The notes beneath the pieces were generated by a model. It searched no databases. It worked only from the letters and a program-made list of their open reading frames with translations, and was not told the DNA's origin. 64,000 nt of DNA. Origin: an uncultured Clostridia bacterium (GTDB lineage: Bacteria > Bacillota > Clostridia > Oscillospirales > Ruminococcaceae). Shown piece after piece: positions 2,750 to 62,835 of this stretch. Position numbers and translations under genes: made by a program. The first letter of the stretch is position 1. Each line of letters opens with the position of its first letter. Location of the stretch: assembly GCA_947600065.1 (NCBI GenBank), contig CANQFZ010000004.1, positions 9,351 to 73,350 on the forward strand, written 5' to 3'.

Positions 2750-2878
2750 CAGTCTGTATAAAAAGTCTAATTTCAGACTGTAGAGAAAGCCACAGATGCT
2801 AGGAAGCGGTGCTGCGGCTAGGCTTTGTGCCTGCCGCAGTGCCGCTGACGCCGCAGATGGGGCTTTATATACAGTCTG
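2750..2878 (-). mobile_element. MITE-like repeat copy 1 (short form, 129 bp)
   Basis: Reverse complement reads CAGACTGTATATAAAGCCCC...GACTTTTTATACAGACTG; flanked by AAAAAT on both sides. Confidence 0.8.
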
Positions 2879-2934
2879 AAAAATTGCCGACAAGATAAGC
2901 TGTTTTAAATTTGTACACTTTTTTAAAAAAAGTG

Positions 2935-2963
2935 TTGATTTTCGGACACAACGGTGTTATAAT
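2935..2963 (+). promoter_or_regulatory. SigA-type promoter
   Basis: TTGATT-17 nt-TATAAT upstream of the 3059 gene. Confidence 0.65.
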
Positions 2964-3058
2964 TTAATTGAGGGAATATGATAAAAAATCACGTTTCCTC
3001 GCGGAAAACCGACTAGCAAAAAAGAGTGTGAAATTTTACATAGAAAGAGGCTGTTGTT

Positions 3059-3985
3059 ATGAGACTGATAACTCGTTCTGATTTCGACGGACTTGCCTGC
3101 GGCGCGCTGTTGTTGAGCGCGGGAGTAGTTGATAGCTGGACTTTTGCTCACCCAAAGGATATTCAGGACGGACTTGTTCCCGTTACGGAAAACGACTGTC
3201 TTGCAAATGTTCCTTTTGTAGAGGGCTGCGGACTTTGGTTCGACCACCATTCGAGCGAAGAAGAGCGTATCCGTTATAAAGGCAAATACAAAGGCGAAAG
3301 CCGTATAACTCCGAGCTGTGCGCGTATTATTTACGAATATTACGGCGGCAAGGAGCGCTTTCCGAATTTCGACGACCTTATGGAAGCCGTAGATAAAGTA
3401 GACAGCGGAAACCTTACGAGAGATGAGATATTAGACCCGCACGGCTGGATACTTGTAGGCTTTCTTATGGATCCGAGAACAGGTCTGGGACGTTTCAGAA
3501 ACTTTACGATAAGCAACTATCAGCTTATGGAAAAGCTCCTGAAATGCTGTTCGTATATGACGACCGAGGAGATCCTCGCAATGCCAGATATACAGGAGAG
3601 AATAAAGCTCTACAACGAGCAGACGGAGCTCTTTAAGGAAATGGTATACGCGCATACGAGGATAGAGGGCGACGTTATAATAAGCGATCTTCGCGGAGTA
3701 GACCCCATATACACGGGAAACCGTTTTCTCATTTATTCGCTCTATCCCGACCAGAACATAAGCTGCTGGATAGTTGACGGAAAGGGTGGAAAGGGTTGCT
3801 CGTGCGCGGTGGGATATTCGATATTGACGAGAACTTCTCATGTAAACGTCGGACGTCTTATGCTCAAATACGGCGGCGGCGGACATATGGCGGTCGGAAC
3901 CTGCCAGTTCACTGATGAAGAGGCGCCGACAAAAGTCCCAGAGCTTTTAAATGAGCTTGTAAATTACGATAAGCTGTATAAATAA
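3059..3985 (+). CDS. DHH-like phosphoesterase (exopolyphosphatase/nanoRNase-like)
   Basis: MRLITRSDFDGLAC, WFDHH and GGGGH motifs; RBS GAAAGAGG. Confidence 0.75.
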   Translation: MRLITRSDFDGLACGALLLSAGVVDSWTFAHPKDIQDGLVPVTENDCLANVPFVEGCGLWFDHHSSEEERIRYKGKYKGESRITPSCARIIYEYYGGKERFPNFDDLMEAVDKVDSGNLTRDEILDPHGWILVGFLMDPRTGLGRFRNFTISNYQLMEKLLKCCSYMTTEEILAMPDIQERIKLYNEQTELFKEMVYAHTRIEGDVIISDLRGVDPIYTGNRFLIYSLYPDQNISCWIVDGKGGKGCSCAVGYSILTRTSHVNVGRLMLKYGGGGHMAVGTCQFTDEEAPTKVPELLNELVNYDKLYK

Positions 3986-3999
3986 TTTTTTTGGCAACA

Positions 4000-4022
4000 A
4001 AGAGCCGCAGGTTTGCGGCTCT
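4000..4022 (+). terminator. Hairpin after the DHH gene
   Basis: AGAGCCGC-AGGTTT-GCGGCTCT; no T-tract follows because the MITE abuts it. Confidence 0.45.
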
Positions 4023-4151
4023 CAGACTGTATATAAAGCCCCATCTGCGTTGTCAGCGCAGCTACGGCAGGCACAAAGCCTAGCCGTAGCCACGCTTCCT
4101 AGCATTTGGGGCTTTCTCTACAGTCTGAAGTTTGACTTTTTATACAAGCTG
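4023..4151 (+). mobile_element. MITE-like repeat copy 2 (short form, 129 bp)
   Basis: Same termini and core hairpin as copy 1; no exact adjacent duplication. Confidence 0.8.
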
Positions 4152-4214
4152 GGAGCAGCAGGTTTTATTTGCTTTCGGTCAATTTTACATCTCCCGAAAA
4201 TAATTTAAAATATA

Positions 4215-4243
4215 TTGACAAAAGTTGTAAGGTGTGCTATAAT
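4215..4243 (+). promoter_or_regulatory. Consensus SigA promoter
   Basis: TTGACA-17 nt-TATAAT. Confidence 0.85.
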
Positions 4244-4247
4244 GAGA

Positions 4248-4423
4248 GTTGCGAAACAACTTAATATAACTTTTAGGGGAAGTGTACACTTTGCCATATG
4301 GTAAAAGTGCATTCTCTTATTTTCGTATGCTTTTTCTGAAAGTTATAACGAAGTTGTTTCGCAGCAATCGGAGCTTGCATTTTTACAAGTGCGCGGCTCT
4401 GACGCTGCGCACTTTTTGTTTTT
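4248..4423 (+). ncRNA. Candidate small RNA (6S-like long irregular hairpin) or attenuated leader
   Basis: Starts at the predicted TSS; GTTGCGAAACAACTT pairs with AAGTTGTTTCGCAGC and TATAACTTT with AAAGTTATA; ends in an intrinsic terminator. Confidence 0.5.
4387..4423 (+). terminator. Intrinsic terminator
   Basis: AAGTGCGCGGC-loop-GCTGCGCACTT followed by T-rich tract. Confidence 0.75.
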
Positions 4424-4483
4424 GCGGGGAAATTGCGCGGCGAAATAATATTATACCGCAAAAAGAAAACGGAGGAGAAAAAT

Positions 4484-6337
4484 ATGAAACTTAAAAAAAT
4501 TGCCGCGTCGGTTCTGGCGGCAACGGTCGCTTTTTCAACAGTCGCTTACAGCTCGATAGCTGAAGAAGTTAAAAGCGAAAAAATCGCGCTTGTGACTTCT
4601 GAGCTTAAAACAGAGATAAAGTCCGACTTGGTCTTTATAGAGGGAATAGGCGTTGTTGATATCACGGGCGTGGGTATTGCCTCAAGCGAAAACGGAAACG
4701 CTGATGAAGACGCAAATCTTGACGTAAGCTTTGAAGATATCGGCTATATCAGCGGGGAGAGCCTTAAAGCCTGGAAAGAAACAGGCGAGCTTAAAGTAGA
4801 AAAACTCAAAGCCGATTTTGACACCACGGGTTTGAAGTGGGGAATGTTCAACGGCTCGAACGGTTATGTTCAGCTTGTAAAAATGGAAAAACAGAAGGTC
4901 GAGGGCAGCGACGAAGAAGAGAACGTTGTTACATACAGAGGGCTTTATAAAATCGAAAACGGGGAAATAAAACACCTCTGCGACCTTGACAATTTCTGGA
5001 CTTGGACAAGAGTGGACGGTATTTCTGTCGGAGTAGATTATAAAATAGAAGATGTTACCATTACTGAAATAAATAATTATAAAGAAGATTGGGATTCTGA
5101 AGTTAATGAGCAATTGATTACTGAAGTAAATGTAACCATAACTCAACCAGACGGCACAAAAGAAACAAAAACGGTCGCTAAAGCGGATTTAAAAGACAGA
5201 GAGTTTGTTATAGAGTATGATGAATATTGGGAAACCACAAATGTTGAAATAGACAAACAGCATGTACTTTATCCCCATATATCCTGCCCGACAAGCGGTG
5301 ATGAACTTTATAGTATAGCTTGTGAGTATCCGTCTATTGCGAACTATCTTTCTGTTCCTGACGGAATTAGATACACAATAACAAAATATTTTAAAGACGG
5401 TACAGAAAAACTTATATACGAAAGCGACTTGAAACATAGCGAGTATGGTTATGACTATTATCCCGATTGTCTGATTGATATACAAGGCTTTAGCAATGGC
5501 AGTGTAATTTGGTATACCGATGATAATATTGTAAAAGAAGGTCTTAACCCCGAAACAGTTTATGCTTATGACGGAGAAACCGGAGAAATAACTGTACAAA
5601 AAAACGAAGTTCAAACCAATCAAAAAGATGAAGACGGAAACAACATAACGCTTTATTTACCCAGATCAATAGATGTAAGGCAAGTAGGAAAAAATGCTAT
5701 TATAGCTAAGATTTTGCCCTCTGTTTATTATAACGGAGAATTTGATTATGATAATCCTCAATATGTATTGTTCAAAGATATTAAAGACTTTTTAAACGGA
5801 GATTATAAAACACGTTATAAAAACTTAGAAATTGCAGTAGAAGAAGATAATCTGTATTTGTTTGAAACGTATAGCGGGAAGATTGGCTACATGGATGAAA
5901 ACGAAAAAGTCCTCGGTGAGTTTGACGCTACAGACGGCTTCGTAGGCAAGTACGCTCCCGTTGTAAAGGACGGCAAGGCTTACCTTGTTGACAAGGATAT
6001 GAAGGCAGTTTCGACAGAAATCGAGGCTGATGATGTCATAGCGATCGACGAGGATCTTTTCCTCGCAAAGAAAGGCGACACGACCTACTTTGTAACATAT
6101 CAGAATGAAGAAAAAGAGCCCGCTGACAGCTCGGACAGCGAATCAAGCTCTGACAGTGAAACTTTATCTGACAACAGCACCGACAACAGCGGTTCGGATA
6201 GTGAGACATCTTCCGACAGCAATTCAAGCGGCAGCGGCGCAACCTCTCCCGATACCGGCGTTGCAGGACTTTCTCTCACGCTCGGCGTTATCGCCCTCGC
6301 AGGCGCGGCAGTAGTTATTTCAAGAAAGAAACACTGA
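4484..6337 (+). CDS. Secreted, cell-wall-anchored surface protein (sortase-type signal SPDTG)
   Basis: RBS GGAGGAG and ATG at 4484; signal peptide MKLKKIAASVLAATVAFS; Ser/Asp linker; SPDTG + hydrophobic helix + RKKH tail. Confidence 0.8.
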   Translation: MKLKKIAASVLAATVAFSTVAYSSIAEEVKSEKIALVTSELKTEIKSDLVFIEGIGVVDITGVGIASSENGNADEDANLDVSFEDIGYISGESLKAWKETGELKVEKLKADFDTTGLKWGMFNGSNGYVQLVKMEKQKVEGSDEEENVVTYRGLYKIENGEIKHLCDLDNFWTWTRVDGISVGVDYKIEDVTITEINNYKEDWDSEVNEQLITEVNVTITQPDGTKETKTVAKADLKDREFVIEYDEYWETTNVEIDKQHVLYPHISCPTSGDELYSIACEYPSIANYLSVPDGIRYTITKYFKDGTEKLIYESDLKHSEYGYDYYPDCLIDIQGFSNGSVIWYTDDNIVKEGLNPETVYAYDGETGEITVQKNEVQTNQKDEDGNNITLYLPRSIDVRQVGKNAIIAKILPSVYYNGEFDYDNPQYVLFKDIKDFLNGDYKTRYKNLEIAVEEDNLYLFETYSGKIGYMDENEKVLGEFDATDGFVGKYAPVVKDGKAYLVDKDMKAVSTEIEADDVIAIDEDLFLAKKGDTTYFVTYQNEEKEPADSSDSESSSDSETLSDNSTDNSGSDSETSSDSNSSGSGATSPDTGVAGLSLTLGVIALAGAAVVISRKKH

Positions 6338-6439
6338 TAACTTCAGACGTTTTCATAATACCCTTCTTTAACACAGGCACACCCAAACGAAAGTTTGGGT
6401 GCGCGGCTTGTCTGACTATATCGGCATAAACAATATTCG

Positions 6440-6471
6440 GCGGCAGTCCTTTCGGGGATTGCCGCTTTTTT
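6440..6471 (+). terminator. Intrinsic terminator
   Basis: GCGGCAGTCC-TTTCG-GGGATTGCCGC-TTTTTT. Confidence 0.8.
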
Positions 6472-6488
6472 ATTGAAACGTCTTTCGC

Positions 6489-6517
6489 TTGACAAAACTC
6501 AAAAACTGTGATACAAT
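6489..6517 (+). promoter_or_regulatory. SigA promoter
   Basis: TTGACA-17 nt-TACAAT. Confidence 0.75.
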
Positions 6518-6534
6518 AAAATGGGGCTGATTTT

Positions 6535-6975
6535 ATGGAGTACCTTATTGTCGCGGCATTGGCGGCTGTAATATTGTGGTGTGTCGGATTCAGCGTGGGC
6601 GATATTGCGACGATGTTTGCCGTGCTCTTGTGCGCGGCGATCGTCCTGGTGGGACTGTTTTTCGTGTTTGCGCTTGTCGTCCTGCTAAGCTCTCATAAAG
6701 CCTCCGCAAGCTTTGTGAAAATGAACGACGACGGGCGCTATCCCTGCGCAGTGTATAAAATAGGCGACAGCGAGTTCAAAAATCTGTTTCCGAGCGAAAT
6801 GATAATGAAAGACCGCCTTTATGTAAAGGATAAGGAAATAGATATAAGAAAGTGTTCGTTTATAAAAGCAGTTTTAGATAAAAACGCCGTTATGACCATA
6901 ATCATAGGGAGCGCGGTATTTATCCCGCTCTCCGTTGCGGTCATTTTCGCGATGAAATGGTTTTTCGGTTTATGA
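6535..6975 (+). CDS. Hypothetical membrane protein
   Basis: 146 aa with N- and C-terminal hydrophobic segments; downstream of a promoter. Confidence 0.7.
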   Translation: MEYLIVAALAAVILWCVGFSVGDIATMFAVLLCAAIVLVGLFFVFALVVLLSSHKASASFVKMNDDGRYPCAVYKIGDSEFKNLFPSEMIMKDRLYVKDKEIDIRKCSFIKAVLDKNAVMTIIIGSAVFIPLSVAVIFAMKWFFGL

Positions 6976-6982
6976 GGTAATT

Positions 6983-7675
6983 ATGAGCAATATAACTTAC
7001 GAGTATATCAAAAGAAATAAAGACGTTCAGACTTATATAAACTACGCCGACGCGGCGCTTATGTCCATAGGCTATACCGAGCATTCAAACGCCCATGTCG
7101 AGCGCGCCGCGGCAAAGGCTTATATGATACTGAACACACTGGGCTATGACGAAAGGACGTGCGAGCTGGCGCAGATAGCGGCTTATATGCACGATATAGG
7201 GAACGTAGTAAACCGTGTCGGTCACGCGCAGACAGGCGCAGTTATGGCGTTCAGACTTCTGGACAGACTGGGAATGCCCGCGGACGAGATAGCGAGGGTA
7301 GTGTCCGCTATAGGAAATCACGACGAGGGAGCTGCCGCTCCCGTAACGCCCATTGCCGCCGCGCTTATCATTGCGGATAAATCGGACGTAAGGCGGTCGA
7401 GGGTGCGCGGTGAAAACGGAGAGAGCTTTGTTCCGAGCAGCGAAAACCTCGCAAAGGATATCCACGACCGCGTGAATTACGCCGTGGAAAGTTCGGAGCT
7501 TAAATTTTCCGACGACAAGAAAAGCCTTGTGCTTAGCCTTGAAATAGATCTTAATATAAGCTCGGTCATGGAGTATTTCGAGATCTTTATTTCAAGAATG
7601 AATTTGTGCAGGACTGCCGCAAAATCCCTCGGCGTTAATTTTGAAGTCATTGTAAACAATTCAAGGATTTTGTGA
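6983..7675 (+). CDS. HD-domain phosphohydrolase
   Basis: TEHSNAH...MHDIGN...GNHD...ADKSD motifs. Confidence 0.85.
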   Translation: MSNITYEYIKRNKDVQTYINYADAALMSIGYTEHSNAHVERAAAKAYMILNTLGYDERTCELAQIAAYMHDIGNVVNRVGHAQTGAVMAFRLLDRLGMPADEIARVVSAIGNHDEGAAAPVTPIAAALIIADKSDVRRSRVRGENGESFVPSSENLAKDIHDRVNYAVESSELKFSDDKKSLVLSLEIDLNISSVMEYFEIFISRMNLCRTAAKSLGVNFEVIVNNSRIL

Positions 7676-7741
7676 CAAATAACGAATTTTTTGTACAATA
7701 TTTGTGATATTTTAACAAATTCAAAAAATATTAAAAACCCC

Positions 7742-7770
7742 TTGCAATTCAATGAAATTTATAGTACAAT
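7742..7770 (+). promoter_or_regulatory. SigA promoter of the pur operon
   Basis: TTGCAA-17 nt-TACAAT, about 185 nt upstream of purE. Confidence 0.65.
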
Positions 7771-7894
7771 ATATATGGGCTTATTCTATAATTTGTTCCA
7801 CAATTTAAAGGGAGTAGACTGATATGGTATCTTTATGCGTTTTAAGGAAAAAATCGGCTCTTTATTATTATGGAATAAGTGCATAAAAAATTAA

Positions 7895-7927
7895 AGCCGT
7901 ATTTCATATAAAGTACGGCTGTTTTTA
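7895..7927 (+). terminator. Terminator-like hairpin in the purE leader
   Basis: AGCCGTA-loop-TACGGCT-GTTTTT lying between the promoter and purE. Confidence 0.55.
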
Positions 7928-7956
7928 TTTGAATTATCTGAAAGGAATTATTTGCT

Positions 7957-8475
7957 ATGGCTTTGAAAAAGGTTGCGGTCATTATGGGAAGCGACAGCGA
8001 TCTGCCTGTCGTTAAAAAAGCTCTTGAGGAGCTGAAGAGGCATAAAGTTGAATATGAGTGCCACGTTATGTCTGCGCACAGAACTCCCGCGCTTGCGTGC
8101 GATTTTGCGAAAAGCGCAAAGGAAAACGGCTTCGGCGTTATCATCTGCGCGGCGGGAATGGCGGCGCACCTTGCGGGAATTGTCGCGGCAAACACGACCC
8201 TGCCCGTTATAGGCATACCGTGCAGCTCTAAAAACTTCGACGGAATGGACGCGCTTCTTGCGACGGTACAAATGCCCTCGGGCATACCCGTTGCGACGGT
8301 GGCGGTAGACGGAGCGAAAAATGCGGCAATACTCGCCGTTCAGATACTTGCGCTCGGCGACGAGGAGCTTTCAAAAATGCTCGAGGAAAGCAAGCGCGAA
8401 ATGGCTCAGACGGTTTCCGATAAGGACGCAAAACTCCAGAAGGAGCTTGACTCTATAGGAACGTTAAGTTTTTGA
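7957..8475 (+). CDS. purE: N5-CAIR mutase
   Basis: IMGSDSD, SAHRTP, AGMAAHLAG, PVIGIP and QMPSGIPVATV motifs. Confidence 0.97.
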   Translation: MALKKVAVIMGSDSDLPVVKKALEELKRHKVEYECHVMSAHRTPALACDFAKSAKENGFGVIICAAGMAAHLAGIVAANTTLPVIGIPCSSKNFDGMDALLATVQMPSGIPVATVAVDGAKNAAILAVQILALGDEELSKMLEESKREMAQTVSDKDAKLQKELDSIGTLSF

Positions 8476-8526
8476 TTTGTAAATAATTGCAGGATAATGC
8501 AAAAAAATAAAAAGGAGATCTTAACT

Positions 8527-9246
8527 ATGGATTACACAAAGGAACAGCAGCTCTACGAGGGCAAGGCAAAGAAAGTTTTCGCGACAAACGACCCCGATTA
8601 TGTCATTGTTGACTATAAGGACGACGCGACAGCTTTCAACGGCGAGAAAAAAGGAACGATAGTAGGAAAAGGCGTTATAAACAACAAGATGACAAACTAT
8701 ATGTTTGCAATGCTCGAAAAAGAGGGCGTGCCGACGCATCTTGTAAAAGAGCTTTCCGACAGAGAAACTCTTGTTAAAAAGGTAGAGATAGTGCCGCTTG
8801 AAGTTATCGTTAGAAACGTTGCGGCAGGAAGCTTTTCCAAAAAGCTCGGCATTGCCGAGGGTACTCCCTTAAAGTGCCCGACGTTGGAATTCAGCTATAA
8901 GAACGACGAGCTGGGCGATCCGTTTATAAACGATTATTATGCGCTTGGTCTCGGGCTTGCGACAAAGGAAGAACTTGATACTATCGCAAAATATGCTTTT
9001 AAGGTAAACGAGTTTATGCTCGGATTTTTCAAGAAGATAAATGTTGACCTTATTGATTTCAAGATAGAGTTCGGACGTTTCCACGGGCAGATACTTCTCG
9101 CGGACGAAATTTCTCCCGACACCTGCCGTTTCTGGGACAGCACGACCCACGAAAAGCTCGACAAGGACCGTTTCCGCCGCGATATGGGCGGCGTCGAGGA
9201 CGCATACAATGAAATGATGAAGAGGATAATGAGCACAAAAGATTGA
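8527..9246 (+). CDS. purC: SAICAR synthase
   Basis: [17 protein letters not shown] and [14 protein letters not shown] motifs; RBS AAGGAG before ATG 8527. Confidence 0.97.
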
Positions 9247-14774: not shown

Positions 14775-14778
14775 CGTT

Positions 14779-19089: not shown

Positions 19090-19123
19090 AAATAAGATAA
19101 GGTTATATTTGGGGAAATATATT

Positions 19124-19303
19124 CAGACTGTATATAAAGCCCCATCTGCGTTGTATGGTTATCCGCCAAAGCGGATGACACGGTCACATGCAACAGCCAC
19201 AAAGGCTAGTTGCAGTAACGCTTCAGCGTTGTACGCAAAGCGTCCAATGCGTGCATACTGGGACTTTCTATACAGTCTGAAACTTGACTTTTTATACAGA
19301 ATG
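19124..19303 (+). mobile_element. MITE-like repeat copy 3 (long form, modules A+B, 180 bp)
   Basis: Same termini; TATATT duplicated on both sides. Confidence 0.85.
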
Positions 19304-20479
19304 TATATTATCGGGGAATGGCGGTGGTTCTTTACGGAAAATAATGACAACAAAAAAGTCGATTTAAAAGAAGTTATAAAAAAGAAAAAACAAAAAACGT
19401 TTATTATAAGGACAATTGTCGTTGCGGTCGTTGCTGTGGCGATAGTTCTTGTTGTGGTGAACTGGGAGAAGATAATAGCCCCGTTCCATGATATAGCGGT
19501 AAACGCGGGAAAGGGCGGCTTTCCCGTGGAGCTTCCGGGAAGTACGTCCTATGTTATGGACAGTCTGGGGGATAATTTCTATCTTCTGACGGATACCTAT
19601 GTCTATACATTTACCGACGAGGGCGGTCAGATAGCAAGCATACAGCACGGCTTCAGAGAGCCCAGCGTTGTTTCGGGCGACAAGCGCCTGCTCGTTTTCG
19701 ACAAGAACGGAAAGGGCTTTAAGGTCTATTCCAGAAACGAAGAAGTATATTCAAAGACGCTCGATGATACTATAGTTTTCGCGGCAATAGGCAAAAACGA
19801 GCGCTCCGCTGTAGTAACAACTGCTTCTCGTTATTCAAACTATCTGTGCGTCTTTAATGACGAGGGAAAACAGATCTTCCGCTATGCGTCGCCTACCGAA
19901 AGAATAATGCAGGTGTGCTTTTCCGATGATGAAAATTATGTTTATCTAACGGTAGTAGGAGAGAAAAACGGCGAGTTTATCACAGAAGTTATGTGCTTTG
20001 ATATAACCAAAGAACAGGACGCTCTCTGGAGACAGAGCATAGGAAACGTTCTGCCGTATTCCCTCGAATGCTGCCCCGACGGGATATATGGCGTAACGGA
20101 AAACGGCTTGTTTTTACTGAATGCTTCGGACGGAACAGTTAAAGCTCAGAATACGTTTTCAAAGGCCGTTATGGGCATAGGCAAAACCAAAGGAGAAAGA
20201 ATAATTTTCTTCCGTGATACAGCCGTTAACGGACAGACGGCTGTCGTATACAATGATGACCTTTCCGCAAAAAACAGCAAGTCATTTTCCGAGCTCTCGT
20301 CATTTGATGTAAACGGCGGAGTGCTTTATGTGCTTTCGGGAAATAAGCTCACGGCTTATTCAAATTCACTTCAGAACGAAAAGGTATACGACCTTGATGA
20401 TGATTATTCAAAAGTGAAGATAATAGGAGATCATGCGTATCTTCTTGGTTATAACCGTGTTCAGCGGATATCCCTGTAA
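19301..20479 (+). CDS. Membrane-anchored beta-propeller-like protein (DUF5711-like)
   Basis: Lys-rich N-terminus, one TM helix, beta-rich remainder; precedes a CvpA-like gene; start codon ambiguous (see findings). Confidence 0.7.
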   Translation: MYIIGEWRWFFTENNDNKKVDLKEVIKKKKQKTFIIRTIVVAVVAVAIVLVVVNWEKIIAPFHDIAVNAGKGGFPVELPGSTSYVMDSLGDNFYLLTDTYVYTFTDEGGQIASIQHGFREPSVVSGDKRLLVFDKNGKGFKVYSRNEEVYSKTLDDTIVFAAIGKNERSAVVTTASRYSNYLCVFNDEGKQIFRYASPTERIMQVCFSDDENYVYLTVVGEKNGEFITEVMCFDITKEQDALWRQSIGNVLPYSLECCPDGIYGVTENGLFLLNASDGTVKAQNTFSKAVMGIGKTKGERIIFFRDTAVNGQTAVVYNDDLSAKNSKSFSELSSFDVNGGVLYVLSGNKLTAYSNSLQNEKVYDLDDDYSKVKIIGDHAYLLGYNRVQRISL

Positions 20480-31107: not shown

Positions 31108-31284
31108 CAGACTGTAGATAAAGCCCCATCTACGTCGTATGGTTATCCGCTAAAGCGGATAACACGGTAACATGCGGCAGGCACAAAGCCTAGCCGCAGC
31201 CACGCTTCAGCGTTGTACGCGAAGCGTTCAATGCGGTATCTGGGACTTTCTCTACAGTCTGAAGCAGGACTTTTATACAGTCTG
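31108..31284 (+). mobile_element. MITE-like repeat copy 4 (long form, modules A+B, 177 bp)
   Basis: Same termini; AAAAT duplicated on both sides. Confidence 0.85.
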
Positions 31285-33534: not shown

Positions 33535-33563
33535 TTGACAAGCAGTGCCGAATGGTGTATAAT
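33535..33563 (+). promoter_or_regulatory. Consensus SigA promoter of citrate synthase
   Basis: TTGACA-17 nt-TATAAT. Confidence 0.85.
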
Positions 33564-33570: not shown

Positions 33571-33725
33571 CAGACTGTATATAAAGCCCCATCTGCTGCG
33601 TCAACGGCACTACGGCAGGCACAAAGCCTAGCCGTAGCACCGTTTCAGCGTTGTACGCGAAGCGTTCAATGCGTGCATACTGGGACTTTCTATACAGTCT
33701 GAAACTTGACTTTTTATTCAGACTG
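33571..33725 (+). mobile_element. MITE-like repeat copy 5 (module B only, 155 bp)
   Basis: Perfect 9-bp flanking duplication ATAGAATAG. Confidence 0.9.
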
Positions 33726-33761: not shown

Positions 33762-35126
33762 ATGGACAAACTGGAACATCTTAAATCAACCGAAGAATTA
33801 AAGAAAATGTGCGAAGAATTTTGCAAGAACAGCGTTATCAGCACAGACCTTATAAACAAGTTCGGCGTTAAGCGCGGACTTAGAAACCCCGACGGTTCGG
33901 GCGTTCTCGCGGGAATAACGAACGTCTGCTGCGTTCACGGCTATGTAATAAGCGAGGGCGACAAGCAGCCCATAGAGGGCGAGCTTATCTACCGCGGATA
34001 TAATATCCGCGACATAGTAAACGGCGCAAAGAAAGACAACCGCTACGGCTATGAAGAAGTCGTTTACCTTCTGCTTTTGGGAAAGCTCCCGACGAAAAGC
34101 GAGCTTCAGTCTTTTTCAAAACTTATAGCAGAGTATCGCGAGCTTCCGCTTTATTTCATAGAGGACGTAATAATGCGCAATCCCTCGCCGAATATCATGA
34201 ATAAAATGCAGCAAGCGGTGCTTACGCTTTACAGCTATGACAGCGACCCCGAAAACAGCTCTCCCGAAGTGGAGATGCTTCAGGCGCTTTCTGTCATTTC
34301 AAAGCTCCCCGCAATAATGGTAGCTTCTTATCAGGCACTTCGCCGTTTTTATCATAACGACAGCATGGTAATGCACCAGATAAATAAAGAAGAGAGCCTA
34401 GCGGAGAGTATCCTTTCTACATTACGCGACGACCGCGCCTATACTCCCGAAGAAGCGAAGCTTTTGGACCTTTGCCTTATGCTCCACGCAGAACACGGCG
34501 GCGGAAACAACTCTACATTCACCTGCCGCACGGTATCGTCTTCGGGCACTGACGCTTATTCGGCATATGCGGCGGCGATAGGTTCTCTAAAGGGTCCTCG
34601 CCACGGCGGAGCAAATATAAAGGTCATGCAGATGCTTGACGCCGTAAAGGACGGCGTAAAAGACTGGAACGATGATGAAGAAGTCGAGAATTTCCTGCAT
34701 AAAATAATACGGAAAGAGGCGGGCGACGGCTCGGGACTTATCTACGGAATGGGTCACGCGGTTTATACATTGTCCGACCCGCGTGCTGTTATTCTTAAAA
34801 AGAACGCAATGGAGCTTGCAAAGGGCAGCGAGTTTGAAGCCGAATTTAAGCTCCTCGACAGCATTGAGCGCATAACTCCGAAAGTCTTTGCGGAAGAACG
34901 CGGTGACATTAAGAATATATGTGCAAATGTGGATATGTATTCGGGACTTGTCTATAAAATGCTGAAGATCCCCGTTGAAATGTATACCGCGCTGTTTGCC
35001 TGCGCGAGAATGGCGGGCTGGTGCGCGCACAGAATGGAAGAAATGATAAACGGAAAGCGCATAATCCGCCCCGCTTATAAGGCTATAAATCTTAACAAGA
35101 AATACATTCCGCTAAACGAGAGGTAA
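33762..35126 (+). CDS. gltA: Citrate synthase
   Basis: GELIYRGY, LHAEHGGGNNSTF, GPRHGGAN, GMGHAVY...DPRA, ANVDMYSG and RIIRP motifs. Confidence 0.93.
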   Translation: MDKLEHLKSTEELKKMCEEFCKNSVISTDLINKFGVKRGLRNPDGSGVLAGITNVCCVHGYVISEGDKQPIEGELIYRGYNIRDIVNGAKKDNRYGYEEVVYLLLLGKLPTKSELQSFSKLIAEYRELPLYFIEDVIMRNPSPNIMNKMQQAVLTLYSYDSDPENSSPEVEMLQALSVISKLPAIMVASYQALRRFYHNDSMVMHQINKEESLAESILSTLRDDRAYTPEEAKLLDLCLMLHAEHGGGNNSTFTCRTVSSSGTDAYSAYAAAIGSLKGPRHGGANIKVMQMLDAVKDGVKDWNDDEEVENFLHKIIRKEAGDGSGLIYGMGHAVYTLSDPRAVILKKNAMELAKGSEFEAEFKLLDSIERITPKVFAEERGDIKNICANVDMYSGLVYKMLKIPVEMYTALFACARMAGWCAHRMEEMINGKRIIRPAYKAINLNKKYIPLNER

Positions 35127-46721: not shown

Positions 46722-46928
46722 TATACAGGGTACAGTGTACAGTACACAGTAAAATGTATCCGCCTTGCGGCGGATATTTTTTAGATTGTTGTCGGACTGA
46801 AACGTTATGAAAAGCAACCGTAAAAGTTTTGCTCGTGTGCCTGTAGACTAAAAACAATTTAAATCTCACCCGCCGTAAGGCGGGTTCCTTTGTTGTATAC
46901 TGTACACTGTCTACTGTCAACTGCCTAC
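46720..46928. repeat. Symmetric element: inverted heptamer arrays (family B) enclosing an inverted REP-like hairpin doublet
   Basis: agtatac agggtac agtgtac agtacac ... ATCCGCCTTGCGGCGGAT ... ACCCGCCGTAAGGCGGGT ... tgtatac tgtacac tgtctac tgtcaac tgcctac. Confidence 0.75.
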
Positions 46929-55954: not shown

Positions 55955-57847
55955 ATGCCTAAGATAAATCAGCTTGATAAAAGCGTATACGAGCTTATAG
56001 CGGCGGGCGAAGTCATAGAACGCCCGTCGTCGGTCATAAAAGAGCTTTGCGAAAATTCGATAGACGCGGGTGCTAAAAATATCTGTGTTGAGATAAAGCG
56101 CGGCGGTATCTCGTATATGAGAGTTACAGACGACGGCTGCGGTATCTCTTATGAGGATATGCCGCTTGCGTTTATGCGCCATGCAACAAGCAAGGTCCTT
56201 TCCGCTCATGACCTTGAAAACATAAATACACTTGGCTTCAGAGGGGAAGCTCTTGCGTCTGTCTGCGCGGTGTCGCGCGTTGAGGCAATAAGCAGGAGAG
56301 CCGTGGACAAGCTTGGCGTTTCTTACAAAATGGAGGGCGGTGCGCCCACGGAATACGACAGAATAGGCTGCGCCGAGGGCACTACCATAATTATCCGCGA
56401 TCTGTTTTACAACACTCCCGCGCGCCTTAAATTCCTGAAAAAAGATGTGACAGAGGGAAATTATATCTCAAACGTTGTGGAAAAGCTCGCTCTCTCACAC
56501 CCCGATATCTCTATAAGGTTTATCCGCGACGGCAAACAGACCATACTTACTTCGGGCGACGGGAGCTTTTACAGCACGATACACGCGGTACTCGGAAAAC
56601 AGTTCGCCGCGTCGATGATACCTGTTGAAAATATCTACCGAGAGATAGGCGTTACGGGATATGTAAGCTCTCCGCTTTTTACGAGATCAAACCGCACAAT
56701 GCAGAATTTCTTCGTAAACGGACGCAGCGTAAAAAGTCCGCTCTGCTGCGCGGCACTCGAAGAAGCTTTCAGAAACAATATCATGGTCGGAAAATTTCCC
56801 GCCTGTGTTCTTTGCATAAACATAGATCCCGCGCTTCTTGACGCAAACATATCTCCCGCAAAGACCGAGGTTCGGTTTTCAAACGAAAAAGCCGTTTTTG
56901 ACGCTATCTATTTTGCCGTCAAAAATTCGATAACGGGCTATGATGAGAGCCGCGAGATAAAGCTGTCAAATGAAACAAACAACAGTGTTTCTACGGTGCT
57001 TATACCTACCGTAAAAGTCCCCGTAGGAAACGAGATCTTTTCCGTACAAAAGCCCGCACCTGCCCCCGAGAGCTTTTATAAAAAGCCCGAAGTAAAAGCC
57101 GTCCAGCCGACGCTTTCGGGAGAAACACTTTCGGACGAGAGAGAAAAGACTATTCCCGCTCCGCGAATTATCCAAAGCGAACAGCCCGATCTCAGCGGAT
57201 TTTCGTTCATTTCGGAAAAGTCGTTTGAAAAGCGAGAAGTTCCCATAAAAGAAGAAGCGGAAGAAGTCCGCGCCGAGCCTTTGGATATTCGCGTAATAGG
57301 CGAGCTTTTCAAGACCTATATACTTTGCGAAAGCAGAGATACTCTGATCCTTATCGACAAACATGCCGCGCATGAGCGGATAAATTTCGAGCGGTTCAAG
57401 CGCGGAACGGATATCCACGGTCAGCTTCTGATAGAGCCGAAAGAGGTATTTCTGAGCGCAGAGGAGTTTGAAGCAGTAAAATGCTTTAAAGAGCAGCTTG
57501 AAAACACGGGAATACTCATAAAGCTCACAGACGACGGAAAAGTTTTTGTAGAGGGAGTTCCCCAGTCGCTTGAGGGGAGCGACCCCGAAGACCTTATACA
57601 GAGCATAGCCGAAATACTTGCTTCGGGAAACGACAACGCCGAGGGCGTGCTGTTTGACGATGTTCTACATACAATGGCGTGCAAGGCGAGCATTCGTGCA
57701 AACGAAACGCAGAGCATAGCAGAGCTTACTTTTCTGGCAAAAGAGGTATTGAAAAATAACGACATACGCTATTGCCCCCACGGCAGACCCGTTATAACGC
57801 AGATATCAAAGCGGCAGATAGAGCGTTATTTCGGTAGGATACAATAA
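55955..57847 (+). CDS. mutL: DNA mismatch repair protein MutL
   Basis: IAAGEVIERP, GFRGEAL, IDKHAAHER, ACKASIR and CPHGRP motifs. Confidence 0.98.
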   Translation: MPKINQLDKSVYELIAAGEVIERPSSVIKELCENSIDAGAKNICVEIKRGGISYMRVTDDGCGISYEDMPLAFMRHATSKVLSAHDLENINTLGFRGEALASVCAVSRVEAISRRAVDKLGVSYKMEGGAPTEYDRIGCAEGTTIIIRDLFYNTPARLKFLKKDVTEGNYISNVVEKLALSHPDISIRFIRDGKQTILTSGDGSFYSTIHAVLGKQFAASMIPVENIYREIGVTGYVSSPLFTRSNRTMQNFFVNGRSVKSPLCCAALEEAFRNNIMVGKFPACVLCINIDPALLDANISPAKTEVRFSNEKAVFDAIYFAVKNSITGYDESREIKLSNETNNSVSTVLIPTVKVPVGNEIFSVQKPAPAPESFYKKPEVKAVQPTLSGETLSDEREKTIPAPRIIQSEQPDLSGFSFISEKSFEKREVPIKEEAEEVRAEPLDIRVIGELFKTYILCESRDTLILIDKHAAHERINFERFKRGTDIHGQLLIEPKEVFLSAEEFEAVKCFKEQLENTGILIKLTDDGKVFVEGVPQSLEGSDPEDLIQSIAEILASGNDNAEGVLFDDVLHTMACKASIRANETQSIAELTFLAKEVLKNNDIRYCPHGRPVITQISKRQIERYFGRIQ

Positions 57848-57849
57848 CT

Positions 57850-57979
57850 CAGACTGCAGATAAAGCCCCATCTGCTGTGTCAGAAGCCCAGCGGCAGGCA
57901 CAAAGCCTAGCCGCAGGACTTCTTCCTTGCATCCGGGACTTTCTCTGCAGTCTGAAAGTTGACTTTTTTATACAAACTG
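57850..57979 (+). mobile_element. MITE-like repeat copy 6 (short form, 130 bp)
   Basis: Same termini with the compensatory change CTGCA/TGCAG; AACT on both sides. Confidence 0.85.
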
Positions 57980-57983
57980 AACT

Positions 57984-58027
57984 CAGACTGCAGATAAAGC
58001 CTGAAATTTGACTTGTTATACAGCATG
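57984..58027 (+). mobile_element. Internally deleted tandem MITE copy (44 bp)
   Basis: CAGACTGCAGATAAAGC joined directly to CTGAAATTTGACTTGTTATACAGCATG. Confidence 0.75.
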
Positions 58028-58048
58028 AATATTTAAGGGTTGATATAA

Positions 58049-58999
58049 TTGAAAAAAATAATTGTTGTCTGCGGACCTACCGCTTCGGGGAAAACCGCGC
58101 TGTCGGTTGAGCTTGCGAAAATTTACGGCGGCGAGATAATATCCGCCGACAGTATGCAGATATATACCGATATGGACATTGCTTCGGCAAAAGCTACCCC
58201 CAAAGAACAGCAGGGCATACCCCACCACCTCATGGGTTTTCTAAACCCGAGCGAGAGCTTTTCAGTCGCGGATTATGTAAAGTTGTGCAGGGAAAAGGCA
58301 AACGACATTATTTCACGCGGAAAAATGCCGATAATATGCGGCGGCACGGGGCTTTATATAAGCTCGTTTATTGATAACCTTATATTTGACGAAAGCGGAC
58401 AGGATTATGAATTCCGTGAGGAAATGAGGAAATTTGCCGAGGAAAACGGAGCAAAAGCGCTTCTTGAAAAATTGAAAGAGGTAGACCCCGAGACCGCTGA
58501 GACTCTGCACGAAAACAATATCGGCAGGATAATCCGCGCGCTCGAAGTCTATAAAACCACGGGACATACCATTTCCGAGGCAAAAAGAAATTCCCGCAGA
58601 GAGCCTTCGCCGTATGAGTTTATAATGATATTTCTTGATCTTGCAGACCGTGAGCAGCTGAAAGACAGGATAAACAGGCGCGTTGACGATATGATAAAGC
58701 GCGGACTTTTGGAAGAAGCGCGGGCTTGCTTTATTCAGAAAGACCGCCCGACAGCTGCGCAGGCAATAGGCATAAAAGAGCTTTATCCCTATATACAAAA
58801 TGAAAAAACGCTCGATGAGTGCATAGAAGAAATAAAGCTCCGCACCCGTCAGTATGCCAAAAGACAGCTCACTTGGTTCAGGCGCGACAGCCGAATGAAC
58901 AGATTAGTAATTGAAAACGGCGACAGCCTCGCTGATGTTGTCGCAAAAGCAAGAGATATCATTGACGACAACTTACAGAATATGGAAATCAAAAGCTGA
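58049..58999 (+). CDS. miaA: tRNA dimethylallyltransferase
   Basis: GPTASGKT, SADSMQIY, GGTGLY and TRQYAKRQLTWF motifs. Confidence 0.97.
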   Translation: MKKIIVVCGPTASGKTALSVELAKIYGGEIISADSMQIYTDMDIASAKATPKEQQGIPHHLMGFLNPSESFSVADYVKLCREKANDIISRGKMPIICGGTGLYISSFIDNLIFDESGQDYEFREEMRKFAEENGAKALLEKLKEVDPETAETLHENNIGRIIRALEVYKTTGHTISEAKRNSRREPSPYEFIMIFLDLADREQLKDRINRRVDDMIKRGLLEEARACFIQKDRPTAAQAIGIKELYPYIQNEKTLDECIEEIKLRTRQYAKRQLTWFRRDSRMNRLVIENGDSLADVVAKARDIIDDNLQNMEIKS

Positions 59000-59201
59000 A
59001 ATTAAAAAAAATTTTGAAAAAATGTTGCTTTTTTATAGAAAATTTATAAATTTTTATAAAAAAAGTATAGCATTTTTTGAACAAATGTGTTATACTGTAT
59101 GTATATAGTTGGGGAACGTTCGTTTTTTCGGACGCGACACCGATGAAATGCGGACAAGTTTAAAGAGATCCGCTTTCAATACAGAGAGAAAAGGTGATAT
59201 T

Positions 59202-59447
59202 ATGGCAAAGGACATCAATTTACAGGACGTTTTTTTAAACCAGGCAAGAAAGGACAAAATTCCCGTTACGATCTACATTACAAACGGATTTCAGTTTAAG
59301 GGCATCGTAAAGGGATTTGACAACTATACCGTCATTCTTGACACAGACGGAAAGCAAAATCTCATTTACAAACACGCTATTTCAACCATTACGCCGTTTA
59401 AGCCTGTTTCGATACTTGACGCTTATGAAAAGGGCGGAGAGGAATAA
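59202..59447 (+). CDS. hfq: RNA chaperone Hfq
   Basis: [25 protein letters not shown] and YKHAISTI motifs; miaA-hfq synteny. Confidence 0.97.
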
Positions 59448-59481
59448 AGGCTGCCTTTGTGATACGGAGGTGAGCTTTTAG

Positions 59482-60693
59482 GTGAAGTCGGCGTGGACAA
59501 GAGCCATATTGTTTATAGTTTCGGCGTTCGTTATCATTATTGCTGTTGGTCAGATTTTTTTCTCGACGGGCAGCACCTTGAAAACGGAGACCGCGTTTAG
59601 TTATGACTATGATGAAGAGATACCGTTTACGGGCGTGTTTATGCGCGATGAAACCATTGTATATGACGACAGCGACGGGTATCTGAGCTATGAGCATGAC
59701 GACGGGATAAAGGTCGGAAAAAGCACGGTTATCGCAAAGCGCTATAAAAACAGCGAGGATATTGCAAGAAGCCGTGAGATAGAGCAGATAAAAAAGCAGA
59801 TAGAAATGCTGGAGAGCGCGGAAAAGCTCATAGGAACAGACAGTTCCCAGCTTGAGGCGATCTCGGCTCAAATAAACGAGAGCCACGCTTCCGTTATTGA
59901 CAGCATTTTAAACGGGAATTATTCGGATGTTTCAAAATATGGAAACGAACTTTTGTGCGCAATGTGCAAGCGCGAGATAACTTTAAAGGAAAGCAGCGGC
60001 TATGAGGAAAAGAAAAACGCCTTGAGGCAGAGAGCTTCCCGGCTTGAAACGCTTGTTTCCGACAGCTCACACGACGTAGTGGCGGGCGGCACGGGTTATT
60101 TTGTTAGCGGCATAGACGGATATGAGGGAGAAATAGGTTATTCCGATTTTGACGCTCTTACAGAAGACAAAATAAACGGGATAATAGAAACCCCCTCAAA
60201 ACAGCCCGAGCAGAACGCTGTCGGAAAGCTTGTGTCGGATTATCGCTGGAGAGCTGCGGCAGTTATCGAAGAGCAAAAAATGTTCGGTATTGGCGAAGGC
60301 TCGGAGGTAGTCGTAAGGATCGGTTCGGGTTCAAGACTGCTGAAAGCAACGGTCGTTTCCAAAAAAGAGTGCGGAAACGGGAAAGCTATATACGTTTTCG
60401 AGTGCGACGACCTTATTCCCGAAACGATGTCTTCTAGGACGGCGAGCTTCAAGCTTGTGCTCAAGAGCTACGGCGGACTGAGAGTATCTAACAGTGCGCT
60501 GCACAATAACGATAAAAACGAGCTGGGCGTTTATATAAAGCGAGAGAACAAGCTGTACTTTAAAAAGGTCAACGTTCAGTATTGGGGCGAGGATTACGTA
60601 ATTTGCACACAGGAGACCGACAGCGATTATCTTAAGCTCTACGACAGCGTTGTTACAGAAGGCAAGGACCTCTACGATGGAAAAATTGTTTGA
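59482..60693 (+). CDS. Membrane-anchored coiled-coil protein (HlyD/adaptor-like, clostridial)
   Basis: GTG start with RBS GGAGGTG; N-terminal TM; GTGYFVSGIDGYE; precedes yggS. Confidence 0.7.
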   Translation: MKSAWTRAILFIVSAFVIIIAVGQIFFSTGSTLKTETAFSYDYDEEIPFTGVFMRDETIVYDDSDGYLSYEHDDGIKVGKSTVIAKRYKNSEDIARSREIEQIKKQIEMLESAEKLIGTDSSQLEAISAQINESHASVIDSILNGNYSDVSKYGNELLCAMCKREITLKESSGYEEKKNALRQRASRLETLVSDSSHDVVAGGTGYFVSGIDGYEGEIGYSDFDALTEDKINGIIETPSKQPEQNAVGKLVSDYRWRAAAVIEEQKMFGIGEGSEVVVRIGSGSRLLKATVVSKKECGNGKAIYVFECDDLIPETMSSRTASFKLVLKSYGGLRVSNSALHNNDKNELGVYIKRENKLYFKKVNVQYWGEDYVICTQETDSDYLKLYDSVVTEGKDLYDGKIV

Positions 60694-61381
60694 TGTGGAA
60701 TTTTCCGATATCCGCGAGAATTACGGGATAATCCGCGAAAATATAGAAAAGGCAACGGCACTTTCAAGCCGCCATGACGAAGTAAAGCTGATGGCGGTGA
60801 CAAAGACAGTGCCGCCCGAAAGGGTGAATTTTGCGGTAGGGCTGGGGATAAAGCTCCTCGGCGAAAACCGCGTACAGGAGTACCTTGAAAAGCGCGAAAG
60901 CTACGCGCCTGCAGAGGTCCACTTTATCGGCTCGCTTCAGACCAATAAAGTGAAGTACATTATTGATAAGGTTTCAATGATACATTCCGTAGACAGTCTG
61001 CATCTGGCGCAGGAGATAGACAGACGCGCCGAGCAGCACGGAGTTGTTATGGATATTCTCGCCGAGATAAATATAGGCGGGGAAGAAACAAAAGGCGGTA
61101 TCCTTTACGAAAGCGCAAAAAGCTTTTGCGAGGAATTGGAAACGCTTAAAAACATAAGGCTCAGAGGTCTTATGACTATCCCGCCCGCAGGGTGCGGGGA
61201 AGAAGTTTTCGCTCGTATGCATGACCTTTTTGAGGAAATAAAGGCAGAGCGAAAAGGGGGACTGTTCGATACTCTTTCGATGGGAATGTCGGGAGATTAT
61301 CAGACGGCAATAAAACACGGGGCAACCATTGTCCGAATAGGTTCAGCGCTGTTCGGGCAAAGGAAATACAATAATAAATAA
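60677..61381 (+). CDS. yggS: PLP homeostasis protein (YggS/YlmE)
   Basis: AVTKTV, GENRVQE, HFIGSLQTNKVK, SMGMSGD and VRIGSALFG motifs. Confidence 0.95.
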   Translation: MEKLFDVEFSDIRENYGIIRENIEKATALSSRHDEVKLMAVTKTVPPERVNFAVGLGIKLLGENRVQEYLEKRESYAPAEVHFIGSLQTNKVKYIIDKVSMIHSVDSLHLAQEIDRRAEQHGVVMDILAEINIGGEETKGGILYESAKSFCEELETLKNIRLRGLMTIPPAGCGEEVFARMHDLFEEIKAERKGGLFDTLSMGMSGDYQTAIKHGATIVRIGSALFGQRKYNNK

Positions 61382-61398
61382 TTGGGAGGAAATTTAAA

Positions 61399-61842
61399 AT
61401 GGCAGGATTTTTGAGAAATTTGTTCGGCACAGCAGATGAGAACGAGGGCTTCGTTGATTATGAAAACGAGTCTTATGACACCTCTTCGAGCGCGGTAACA
61501 AACGAAGAGGCATATTCTTCGAGCTACAGCGAGCCCAAGAGCTATACATCGAGCTCAAGCTCAAAGTTTGTAAACATCGGAACGGGAAGCGCCGCTCCTA
61601 CCAAGATAAAGATACTCAAGCCCAAGAGCTATGAGGAAGTTATCGAGGTAGCGGTCGACCTTATCCGCGAGGGAACAACTATTTTCATAAACTTAAACGG
61701 TCTTTCAAATGATATCTGCATAAGAATCGTTGACTTTATGACGGGCGTTACGGCTGCTTTCCAGGGGGATATCAAGAAGGTAGACGCTTATTGCTATGCG
61801 GCTGCGCCGAAGAATGTTGACCTTATAGACAGCATCGATTGA
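61399..61842 (+). CDS. sepF: Cell division protein SepF
   Basis: PKSYEEV and RIVDFMTG...GDIKKV motifs; yggS-sepF-ylmH-divIVA order. Confidence 0.88.
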   Translation: MAGFLRNLFGTADENEGFVDYENESYDTSSSAVTNEEAYSSSYSEPKSYTSSSSSKFVNIGTGSAAPTKIKILKPKSYEEVIEVAVDLIREGTTIFINLNGLSNDICIRIVDFMTGVTAAFQGDIKKVDAYCYAAAPKNVDLIDSID

Positions 61843-61846
61843 TTAG

Positions 61847-62617
61847 ATGCCGTTTGAACTGACAGAAGACGAGCGTTATCTGTCCGCGCATATTTCCGAC
61901 CTTTGCAGATCAAGCCAAAGGTCGGGAGTGCCGCGGTTTTCGGCGTTTTTAAACGAGAGAGAAGCGGCGATAGCAAAAGAAGCGGCGAGGACAGAGAACG
62001 CAATTCCTGTGTTTTACGGCGGTTATGACGGCGCACAAAGAACAGTGTGCGGTTTTTTTGAGGGGACTTTCGCAGAAGAATTTGAAACGGAAGCCGTAAA
62101 CAGGCTTTTCCCGATAAAGGCTGTTTCATTTTCGTTCAGAACACGTGATACACTTTCCCATCGCGATTTTTTGGGAGCGATAATGTCGCTCGGCATAAAG
62201 CGCGAAACAGTGGGTGATATCACGGTAGGCGAGGGATATGCGGCGGTTTTCTGCCTCGAAGCAGAGACGGAGCTTATTCGCGGCATAACAAAGATAGGAA
62301 ATGTCGGCGTCTGCGCTGAGGACGGACTGACAAGACCGATTGTCATAAAAGAGCCGAAAAAAATTATCGCGAGCGTTTCGTCGATGAGGTTAGACTGCAT
62401 TGTCGGGGCGTGCGCTAATATTTCAAGAGACAGATCCGCAGCGCTCGTAAAAAGCGGGCTGGTAAGCGCGGATTTTTCGGTGTGTCTTGAAACAAGCAGG
62501 ATATTGTCAGAAAATTCTGTGCTCTCCATAAGAGGGTACGGAAAGTTTAAAGTGTCGAAAATTGTCGGAACGTCCAAGAAAGGACGTTTGCGTGTTGAGA
62601 TCGAAAAATATGTATGA
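61847..62617 (+). CDS. ylmH: YlmH/Sll1252-family S4 RNA-binding protein
   Basis: YGGYDGAQR, SHRDFLGAIMSLGIKRE, VSSMRLD and SIRGYGKF motifs. Confidence 0.9.
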   Translation: MPFELTEDERYLSAHISDLCRSSQRSGVPRFSAFLNEREAAIAKEAARTENAIPVFYGGYDGAQRTVCGFFEGTFAEEFETEAVNRLFPIKAVSFSFRTRDTLSHRDFLGAIMSLGIKRETVGDITVGEGYAAVFCLEAETELIRGITKIGNVGVCAEDGLTRPIVIKEPKKIIASVSSMRLDCIVGACANISRDRSAALVKSGLVSADFSVCLETSRILSENSVLSIRGYGKFKVSKIVGTSKKGRLRVEIEKYV

Positions 62618-62678
62618 TCTGTTTTTATAGGAATTTCAGACGGAGACGGCTGAAATTCCTATGAGAACAGAAAGGTTT

Positions 62679-62835
62679 TATGCTGTATATAAGAAGTCAA
62701 GTTTCAGACTGTAGAGAAAGCCCCGGTATGCTCGCATTGAGCGCGGGGCGCTCAATACTGAAGCGCTACTGCAACTAGCCTTTGTGGCTGTTGCAGTGAC
62801 ACTGACGACGTAGATGGGGCTTTATATACAGTCTG
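62679..62835 (-). mobile_element. MITE-like repeat copy 7 (module B variant, about 157 bp)
   Basis: Reverse-oriented copy; flanks AGGTTT/ATGTTT (5 of 6 match). Confidence 0.85.

Follow-up and report, generated by a model that had tools for sequence, protein, structure and literature searches.

The window analyzed here, a stretch of 64,000 nt from an uncultured Clostridia bacterium, contains seven copies of a short, strongly folded repeat that is very probably a non-autonomous DNA transposon, or MITE (miniature inverted-repeat transposable element), of the IS1182 family. The host is represented by a metagenome-assembled genome (MAG) of an uncultured gut Oscillospiraceae/Clostridia organism, referred to here as G000 (2.22 Mb, 80 contigs, 98.6% complete), in which the window is C4:9351-73350. 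The element is 105-200 nt long and without coding capacity, and its tips match the ends (CAGNCTGTAGAAAAAGTC) of an IS1182-family insertion sequence (IS) of about 1.5 kb from sister species. By this match, a family that the initial annotation of the window did not recognize becomes recognizable as an IS1182-family derivative, and every property of a MITE and of such a derivative that could be examined was found. The AT-rich flanking duplications of variable length that the same annotation had described are supported, and their lengths form two groups: copies are inserted either in AT-rich DNA, with a duplication of 5-9 bp, or at the base of a hairpin, the whole of which (16-34 bp) is duplicated, as in the full-length elements. 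An IS1182-family DDE transposase supplied in trans would cut and paste the element.

The full-length relatives were found among 30 loci returned by a DDE_Tnp_1 search of 60 other species of the genus. Scanning these loci for the MITE tip revealed a transposase gene bracketed by inverted tips in the genome G008. The G008 element is 1521 bp long and has the ends CAGTCTGTAGATAATT and CAGTCTGTAGAAAAAGTC, while its 464-aa protein contains the domains DUF772, DDE_Tnp_1, and DDE_Tnp_1_6 and scores 372 bits on NF033551, the NCBIfam model of the IS1182 family (cut-off of 270 bits). Further IS copies with the same ends (1513-1552 bp) are present in G103, G114, G074, and G112. The sequence CAGNCTGT(A/C)(G/T)A(A/T)AAA forms the start and the end of these copies, and next to it lies a subterminal hairpin in which the sequence varies and the pairing is kept. 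When compared with the IS ends, the right tip of the MITE matches the transposase-proximal end of the G008 element at 17 of 18 positions, and its left tip matches the G114 end at 19 of 24, including the CCCC that opens the stem. The hairpins duplicated at the IS copies measure 23 bp in G008, 26 bp in G103, 21 bp in G074, and at least 33 bp in G114.

All seven copies in the initial annotation were recovered in position and strand, and its 44-nt deleted copy was located directly behind one of them. In the following list, A and B denote two optional hairpins, present (+) or absent (-).

2750-2878, minus strand: MITE copy, 129 nt, -A-B; 6-bp target duplication AAAAAT
4023-4151, plus strand: MITE copy, 129 nt, -A-B; inserted into the terminator that follows the gene at 3059-3985, between its stem and its T-tract
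19124-19303, plus strand: MITE copy, 180 nt, +A+B; TATATT on the flanks
31108-31284, plus strand: MITE copy, 177 nt, +A+B; AAAAT on the flanks
33571-33725, plus strand: MITE copy, 155 nt, -A+B; 9-bp duplication ATAGAATAG
57850-57979, plus strand: MITE copy, 130 nt, -A-B; outer-stem variant CTGCA/TGCAG; AACT on the flanks
57984-58027, plus strand: mini element, 44 nt; left 18-nt tip fused directly to the right tail, 4 nt past copy 57850-57979
62679-62835, minus strand: MITE copy, 157 nt, -A+B; B variant TGAGCGC-CCC-GCGCTCA; degenerate right tail

As first proposed, each full copy contains the 18-nt motif CAGWCTGTATAWAAAGYC three times: once at its left end and twice in inverted form, inside the element and at its right end. 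When up to three mismatches are allowed, this motif has 22 matches in the window, compared to 0.23 expected from shuffles. Copy 33571 is preceded by a 12/12 promoter match (33535-33563) and followed by a start codon at 33762, the gene of which is called citrate synthase in the initial annotation only.

Empty sites, which had been suggested as a check, are present for six of the seven window copies (2750, 4023, 19124, 31108, 33571, and 62679) in the nearest sampled sister species, G014, G003, and G010, whose flanks are 86-95% identical. At 33571, all three sisters have the exact empty site GGTGTATAATAGAATAGTATAAT with a single ATAGAATAG, which proves the 9-bp target duplication. At 2750, G014 and G003 have only one AAAAAT at an exact empty site, which likewise proves the 6-bp duplication, and the site is approximately empty in G010 (3-bp overlap, diverged target). 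The joined flanks of 19124 and 31108 are uninterrupted in all three sisters, and the site of 62679 is empty in G014 and G010 and filled in G003. Copy 4023 departs from this pattern. G003 and G010 retain an intact terminator, AGAGCCGCA-TTTAAATT-TGCGGCTCT-TTTATTTTT, whereas in G000 the terminator stem (3990-4022) is parted from its T-tract by the insertion, a degenerate partial copy of the hairpin (GGAGCAGCAGGTTT, 4152-4175) follows the element, and a simple flanking duplication is lacking.

When the joined flanks of ten G000 copies were compared, the site was empty in all three sisters for 5/10, in at least two for 8/10, and in at least one for 9/10. Most copies in G000 thus postdate the split from the nearest sampled species. 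Identity among copies is about 75-100%, and two G000 copies may be up to about 20% different. The diversity of these young copies must therefore reside in several source lineages that co-exist and all keep the fold.

A flush duplication is found at 61 of 143 sites, and most are 5-9 bp long (mode of 6-7). Whole-hairpin duplications accompany the MITE copies at C28:1307 (28 bp), C9:18148 (28 bp), and C8:50320 (20 bp) in G000 and those at L002 (31 bp) and L027 (34 bp); some MITE copies and IS copies are inserted in terminator-like hairpins, with the whole hairpin duplicated. A fold energy of -15 kcal/mol or lower is found for 26.6% of reconstructed targets, compared to 10.3% of composition-matched controls. 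The ISfinder family table gives direct repeats of 0-60 bp for the IS1182 family. The variable duplications are explained by the habit of IS1182-type elements of landing in hairpins (PMC4923244, PMC5678879).

A hidden Markov model (HMM) built from the seven window copies gives 81 non-overlapping nhmmer matches in the 2.2 Mb of G000, 68 of which are near-complete. All copies are intergenic, with a median distance of 8 nt past the upstream stop codon. By BLAST, the element is found in 31 of the 36 species of the host genus and is absent from 24 other families of the order, each represented by one genome. The only matches to the exact 24-nt tip pattern are in MAGs that carry the label uncultured Clostridia (rabbit 'Lapin' bins) or Oscillospiraceae, and our literature search returned no paper connecting MITEs with Oscillospiraceae. 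The Rfam search that the initial annotation called for returned no match to the element: the whole window gave only a tRNA at the gathering threshold, and one copy searched at E-values up to 10 gave only a chance match of 10 bits.

Within the element, the terminal inverted repeats consist of the 18-nt tip at the left end and its inverted counterpart at the right end, with an additional inner copy. The body forms a single long foldback with imperfect pairing. The left tip pairs with the inner inverted tip in an outer stem of about 20 pairs, which closes a junction holding the core hairpin; hairpins A and B, when present, flank the core hairpin 5' and 3', respectively. The second inverted tip is carried by a 24-nt tail, and the outer right tip lies 6 nt beyond the inner one. 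The 180-nt copy 19124-19303 folds at -69.4 kcal/mol (z = -6.1). In some copies (105-115 nt), the element stops at the inner tip and the duplication adjoins that tip, which indicates that either right tip is usable as an end, giving the 105-nt and 129-nt forms.

Among 148 parsed copies from G000 and related loci, the -A-B form is the most frequent (77), followed by +A+B (38), -A+B (24), and +A-B (9). The modular forms described at the outset are therefore confirmed, with two amendments: there is a fourth form, +A-B, and neither hairpin is private to the element. The modules also covary between copies, as in the B stems ACGC/GCGT, GCGC/GCGC, GCCC/GGGC, and GTGCGC/GCGCAC. The module-A hairpin (TATCCGC-loop-GCGGATA) occurs at about 68 places outside the MITE in G000, including 46740-46790 of the window (C4:56107), and the 28-nt module-B hairpin CAGCGTTGTACGCGAAGCGTTCAATGCG at 22 places, with ACTGTAC-like heptamers on its flanks. 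No IS1182-type tips lie within 500 nt of these outside repeats, so the hairpin-B repeats are not simply longer members of the same MITE family. Their distribution suggests that A and B belong to a shared pool of hairpin cassettes.

Two sites show differences between species. In G003, the ortholog of copy 62679-62835 has the same site, the same flanks (about 97% identical), and the same odd tail, yet it is without module B and carries clustered internal changes; module B was thus gained or lost at an orthologous site. At the site of the 151-nt copy C60:1029-1179 of G000, G010 (L171, C54:3200-3570) has a 251-bp element of another MITE family with the same tips, which is either a replacement in place or the result of a shared hot spot.

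The covarying stems reported initially (CTACGGC/GCCGTAG, TGCAAC/GTTGCA, AGGC/GCCT versus AGCC/GGCT, and CTGTA/TACAG versus CTGCA/TGCAG) are all present, and the covariation persists on a larger set of 50 distinct 129-nt copies (alignment A1) with a structure of 40 pairs drawn by hand. In this alignment, 93.5% of cells pair, a fraction that drops to 25-38% if the 3' partners are shifted by 1-3 columns, and both sides have changed in 21 of the 40 pairs (153 cells). The observed paired fraction and covariation score are reached by none of 500 shuffles, a comparison in which related sequences can beat every shuffle and descent among copies inflates the statistics. Many covarying columns have two main states; several have 4-5 pair types, such as columns 37-72 with GC, UA, CG, AU, and GU. 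The pairing is conserved through compensatory changes, and the reason for this conservation is a separate question.

The mismatches that do occur are distributed unevenly between the strands. On the strand that reads from the left tip, 96 cells are A.C or C.A and 11 are G.T or T.G, and the former correspond to wobble pairs on the opposite strand. Column pair 38-71 has both C.A (26) and A.C (7). The large one-sided counts come from three positions only and so represent few independent events. Consistent with this direction, 129 of 149 copies have a more stable foldback on the reverse (minus) strand (mean of -73.2 kcal/mol, versus -65.6 kcal/mol for the other strand). Relative to neighboring genes, orientation is mixed, with 56 copies in sense and 33 in antisense (p = 0.02).

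The initial annotation took the covariation to imply a structure preserved as RNA or single-stranded DNA, beyond what a passive MITE needs. This is plausible, and it gains support from the fact that one strand folds better than the other. The argument is nevertheless limited in that stems of the MITE bcr1 are already on record with compensatory changes (PMC3184786), that exchange of hairpins can mimic covariation, and that kinship inflates the statistics. We place a cis requirement first among the reasons for the kept fold, we expect hairpin exchange to contribute, and we consider a host RNA function unlikely as the main cause. Under a cis requirement, folding would be needed or advantageous for transposition by an enzyme family that deals with hairpins and whose own ends have subterminal hairpins. 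Only source copies foldable on one strand would then go on being copied, which is the most likely reason for the kept pairing, and exchange of whole hairpins between copies would help keep it. In favor of this explanation, the copies are young, diverse co-existing lineages all pair, mismatches are one-sided, and the IS ends themselves bear hairpins.

A more far-reaching version would have an IS1182-type transposase need or strongly prefer a substrate folded on one strand, with the same hairpin logic governing both target and element, and hairpins A and B moving as exchangeable cassettes between unrelated repeat families. We consider this version rather improbable. If true, it would represent a natural 'hairpin in, hairpin out' mode of transposition with modular cargo.

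The pairing might also be kept in a passive MITE without selection on folding, if gene conversion or recombination transfers both arms together between copies and descent from a few source copies has spread a small number of hairpin alleles. The two site comparisons fit such exchange, with the G003 counterpart of 62679 differing by a whole B hairpin and clustered changes between flanks that are about 97% identical, and with a different 251-bp element sharing the same ends in G010 at the C60:1029 site. The occurrence of hairpins A and B in other repeats, the two-state nature of many covarying columns, and the capacity of related sequences to beat all shuffles fit this explanation as well. It accounts less readily for columns with 4-5 pair types, such as 37-72, or for young copies that differ by up to about 20% and still pair, and conversion alone does not predict one-sided mismatches (96 A.C versus 11 G.T) or a column pair, 38-71, with both C.A and A.C. 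On balance, a purely passive origin of the pairing is possible and somewhat doubtful.

Alternatively, the element could have been adopted by the host as a structured RNA, serving as a terminator, a 3' stabilizer, or a leader structure, with this function preserving the fold. The intergenic position of all copies, a median of 8 nt after a stop codon, would suit such a role and may equally reflect target choice or tolerance. Copy 33571 in a leader behind a 12/12 promoter match, the tolerance of wobble-type pairs on one strand, and the example of bcr1 in the Bacillus cereus group, described in PMC3184786 as a transcribed MITE with compensatory changes, also point in this direction. However, most copies arose after the nearest sampled species had split off, and their sites are empty there, which argues against a long-standing host need. 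Orientation is mixed, the better-folding strand is in the minority sense orientation (33 versus 56), and Rfam contains no corresponding family. A simple scan for consensus terminators found none inside the elements and so does not support the terminator reading in particular. Taken together, these observations make host adoption improbable. Finally, an element resembling REPINs or IS200/IS605, with a hairpin-recognizing HUH (Y1) transposase that moves it as single-stranded DNA, would have a similarly hairpin-rich body, asymmetric folding of the strands, and REP-like relatives of hairpins A and B elsewhere in G000, yet HUH elements make no target-site duplications, such duplications are proven here by empty sites, the terminal inverted repeats match a DDE family, and G000 has no match to Y1_Tnp (PF01797), so that this origin is highly improbable.

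With respect to our assignment of the element to the IS1182 family and of its fold to a cis requirement, several observations weigh on the other side. The window has no transposase, as initially reported, and for the IS1182 family this extends to the whole assembly: tblastn and HMM searches found no such transposase in G000 and none in the MITE-rich sisters G010, G014, G013, and G003, which are four of its five closest MITE-bearing sisters; the fifth, G002, which has few copies, has only a weak sub-threshold fragment. With no gene in the assembly or its close sisters, the enzyme that moved the young copies is not seen. IS homologues are present in only 20 of the 101 genomes of the genus, and many of these are broken, with intact copies in G008, G103, and G114. 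No IS was found with both ends identical to the MITE tips, the match being limited to the first 16-20 nt; large protein searches for a closer parent were not made. More than half of the 143 sites are without a flush duplication under the end definitions used, and the overall fold energy of targets is the same as that of controls (Mann-Whitney p = 0.24), so that only the tail of the distribution differs. The association of the better-folding strand with the minority sense orientation, raised above, does not fit a simple RNA reading, and it does not fit an obvious DNA reading either. MAGs often lose multi-copy IS, which is an excuse for the missing transposase and not evidence. The cognate IS may be unassembled or unbinned, may reside on a plasmid or phage, or may have been lost recently.

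Other candidate parents in G000 were examined and rejected. There is no match to DDE_Tnp_1 or ISL3 in G000, and the sole rve match is an ordinary IS3-family element with orfA and orfB (L098:752-1986 = C2:33204-34438), which is the only transposase among the families searched in this genome and has ends unrelated to the MITE. Self-BLAST of G000 for a multi-copy IS gave only paralogous genes and other short repeats, and a scan of G000 and 90 loci for tip pairs 0.6-4.5 kb apart around an ORF gave only MITE pairs bracketing host genes.

Several further repeats were observed in G000. At least one other MITE family, of about 240 bp, has the same 18-nt tip at its start and end and contains G+C-rich CCCCTTCCCC/GGGGAAGGGG hairpins (C25:11690-11929, C6:59658, C20:13250, C24:27427, and C40:10591), and minis of 40-50 nt consisting of tips only are found at C7:5882, C16:10416, C16:36260, and C35:11050. 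A divergent subfamily with CTGCCGATAAAGCC tips forms a tandem array of three head-to-tail copies at C58:3762-4095. A larger tandem array of about 6.4 kb at C9:42521-48959 has self-matches at multiples of about 68 nt with about 71% identity. Within the window, the ORF from 62875 holds 33-nt and 30-nt tandem repeats (63191-63322 and 63516-63869) and thus encodes a repeat protein.

The elements also have consequences for annotation and gene expression. The mechanically called ORF 19109-20479 (TTG start) begins upstream of copy 19124-19303 and reads through it, and the true start of its gene must lie downstream of the copy; masking the elements would avoid spurious ORF calls such as this one. As insertions adjoin promoters and terminators, as in the cases of copies 33571 and 4023, they probably alter expression. 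More broadly, a repeat that is abundant in a genus of uncultured gut Clostridia can now be named and tied to a family of transposases that work by a poorly understood mechanism, and dozens of pairs of filled and empty sites show IS1182-type elements either duplicating a whole terminator hairpin or making short duplications. Textbook MITE biology covers everything observed here except that foldability is one-sided and hairpin modules are swapped.

When compared to previously described repeats, one likeness is to SPRITE, RUP, and BOX of Streptococcus pneumoniae (PMC3184786), which are likewise small, intergenic, and close to gene ends and fold into a hairpin or terminator-like structure. RUP belongs to another IS family, and SPRITE and BOX have no stated parent IS; all three are likened to the present MITE by resemblance only. 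In the latter, the stem on the minus strand is followed only by CTTTATAT. A parallel for the kept fold is bcr1 (Klevan 2007, as summarized in PMC3184786), a MITE-like repeat of about 155 bp from Firmicutes with short duplications and a non-conserved genomic distribution, in which compensatory base changes keep a cruciform-like fold. According to that summary, bcr1 differs in having fixed 5-bp duplications, in being transcribed, and in having no identified parent IS. Its sequence is unrelated to the element studied here.

With respect to target choice, a close comparison is with IS1272 and TnSha1, IS1182-family elements of staphylococci that target hairpins and terminators with little preference for primary sequence (PMC4923244, PMC5678879); palindromic targets of other family members are credited to Siguier et al. 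2015 in PMC4923244. The full-length relatives described here have a transposase of the same family (NF033551, with DUF772, DDE_Tnp_1, and DDE_Tnp_1_6), and IS1272 variants with one end tandemly duplicated recall the doubled right tip of the MITE. IS1272 and TnSha1 are reported without duplication and with partial deletion of the hairpin, which only copy 4023 recalls, whereas here the whole hairpin is duplicated by the IS and by many MITE copies. Also unlike these two elements, most of the MITE copies make 5-9-bp duplications in AT-rich DNA, and the MITE contains no gene.

Another close counterpart is MITEPye1 of Paracoccus yeei, an IS1182-type MITE (PMC11578231). It is likewise intergenic and transposase-less, with a stable fold and 18-bp terminal repeats that match an IS1182-family IS, and it is assumed to be moved in trans. 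The element studied here is a known kind of mobile DNA; IS1182-type MITEs and fold-keeping changes in MITEs are on record in MITEPye1 and bcr1, respectively. MITEPye1 differs in having copies that are 96-100% identical, 4-bp duplications, and an alphaproteobacterial host, whereas the present family is diverse (about 75-100%), modular, and roughly ten-fold more numerous, and makes variable duplications in the genomes of gut Clostridia.

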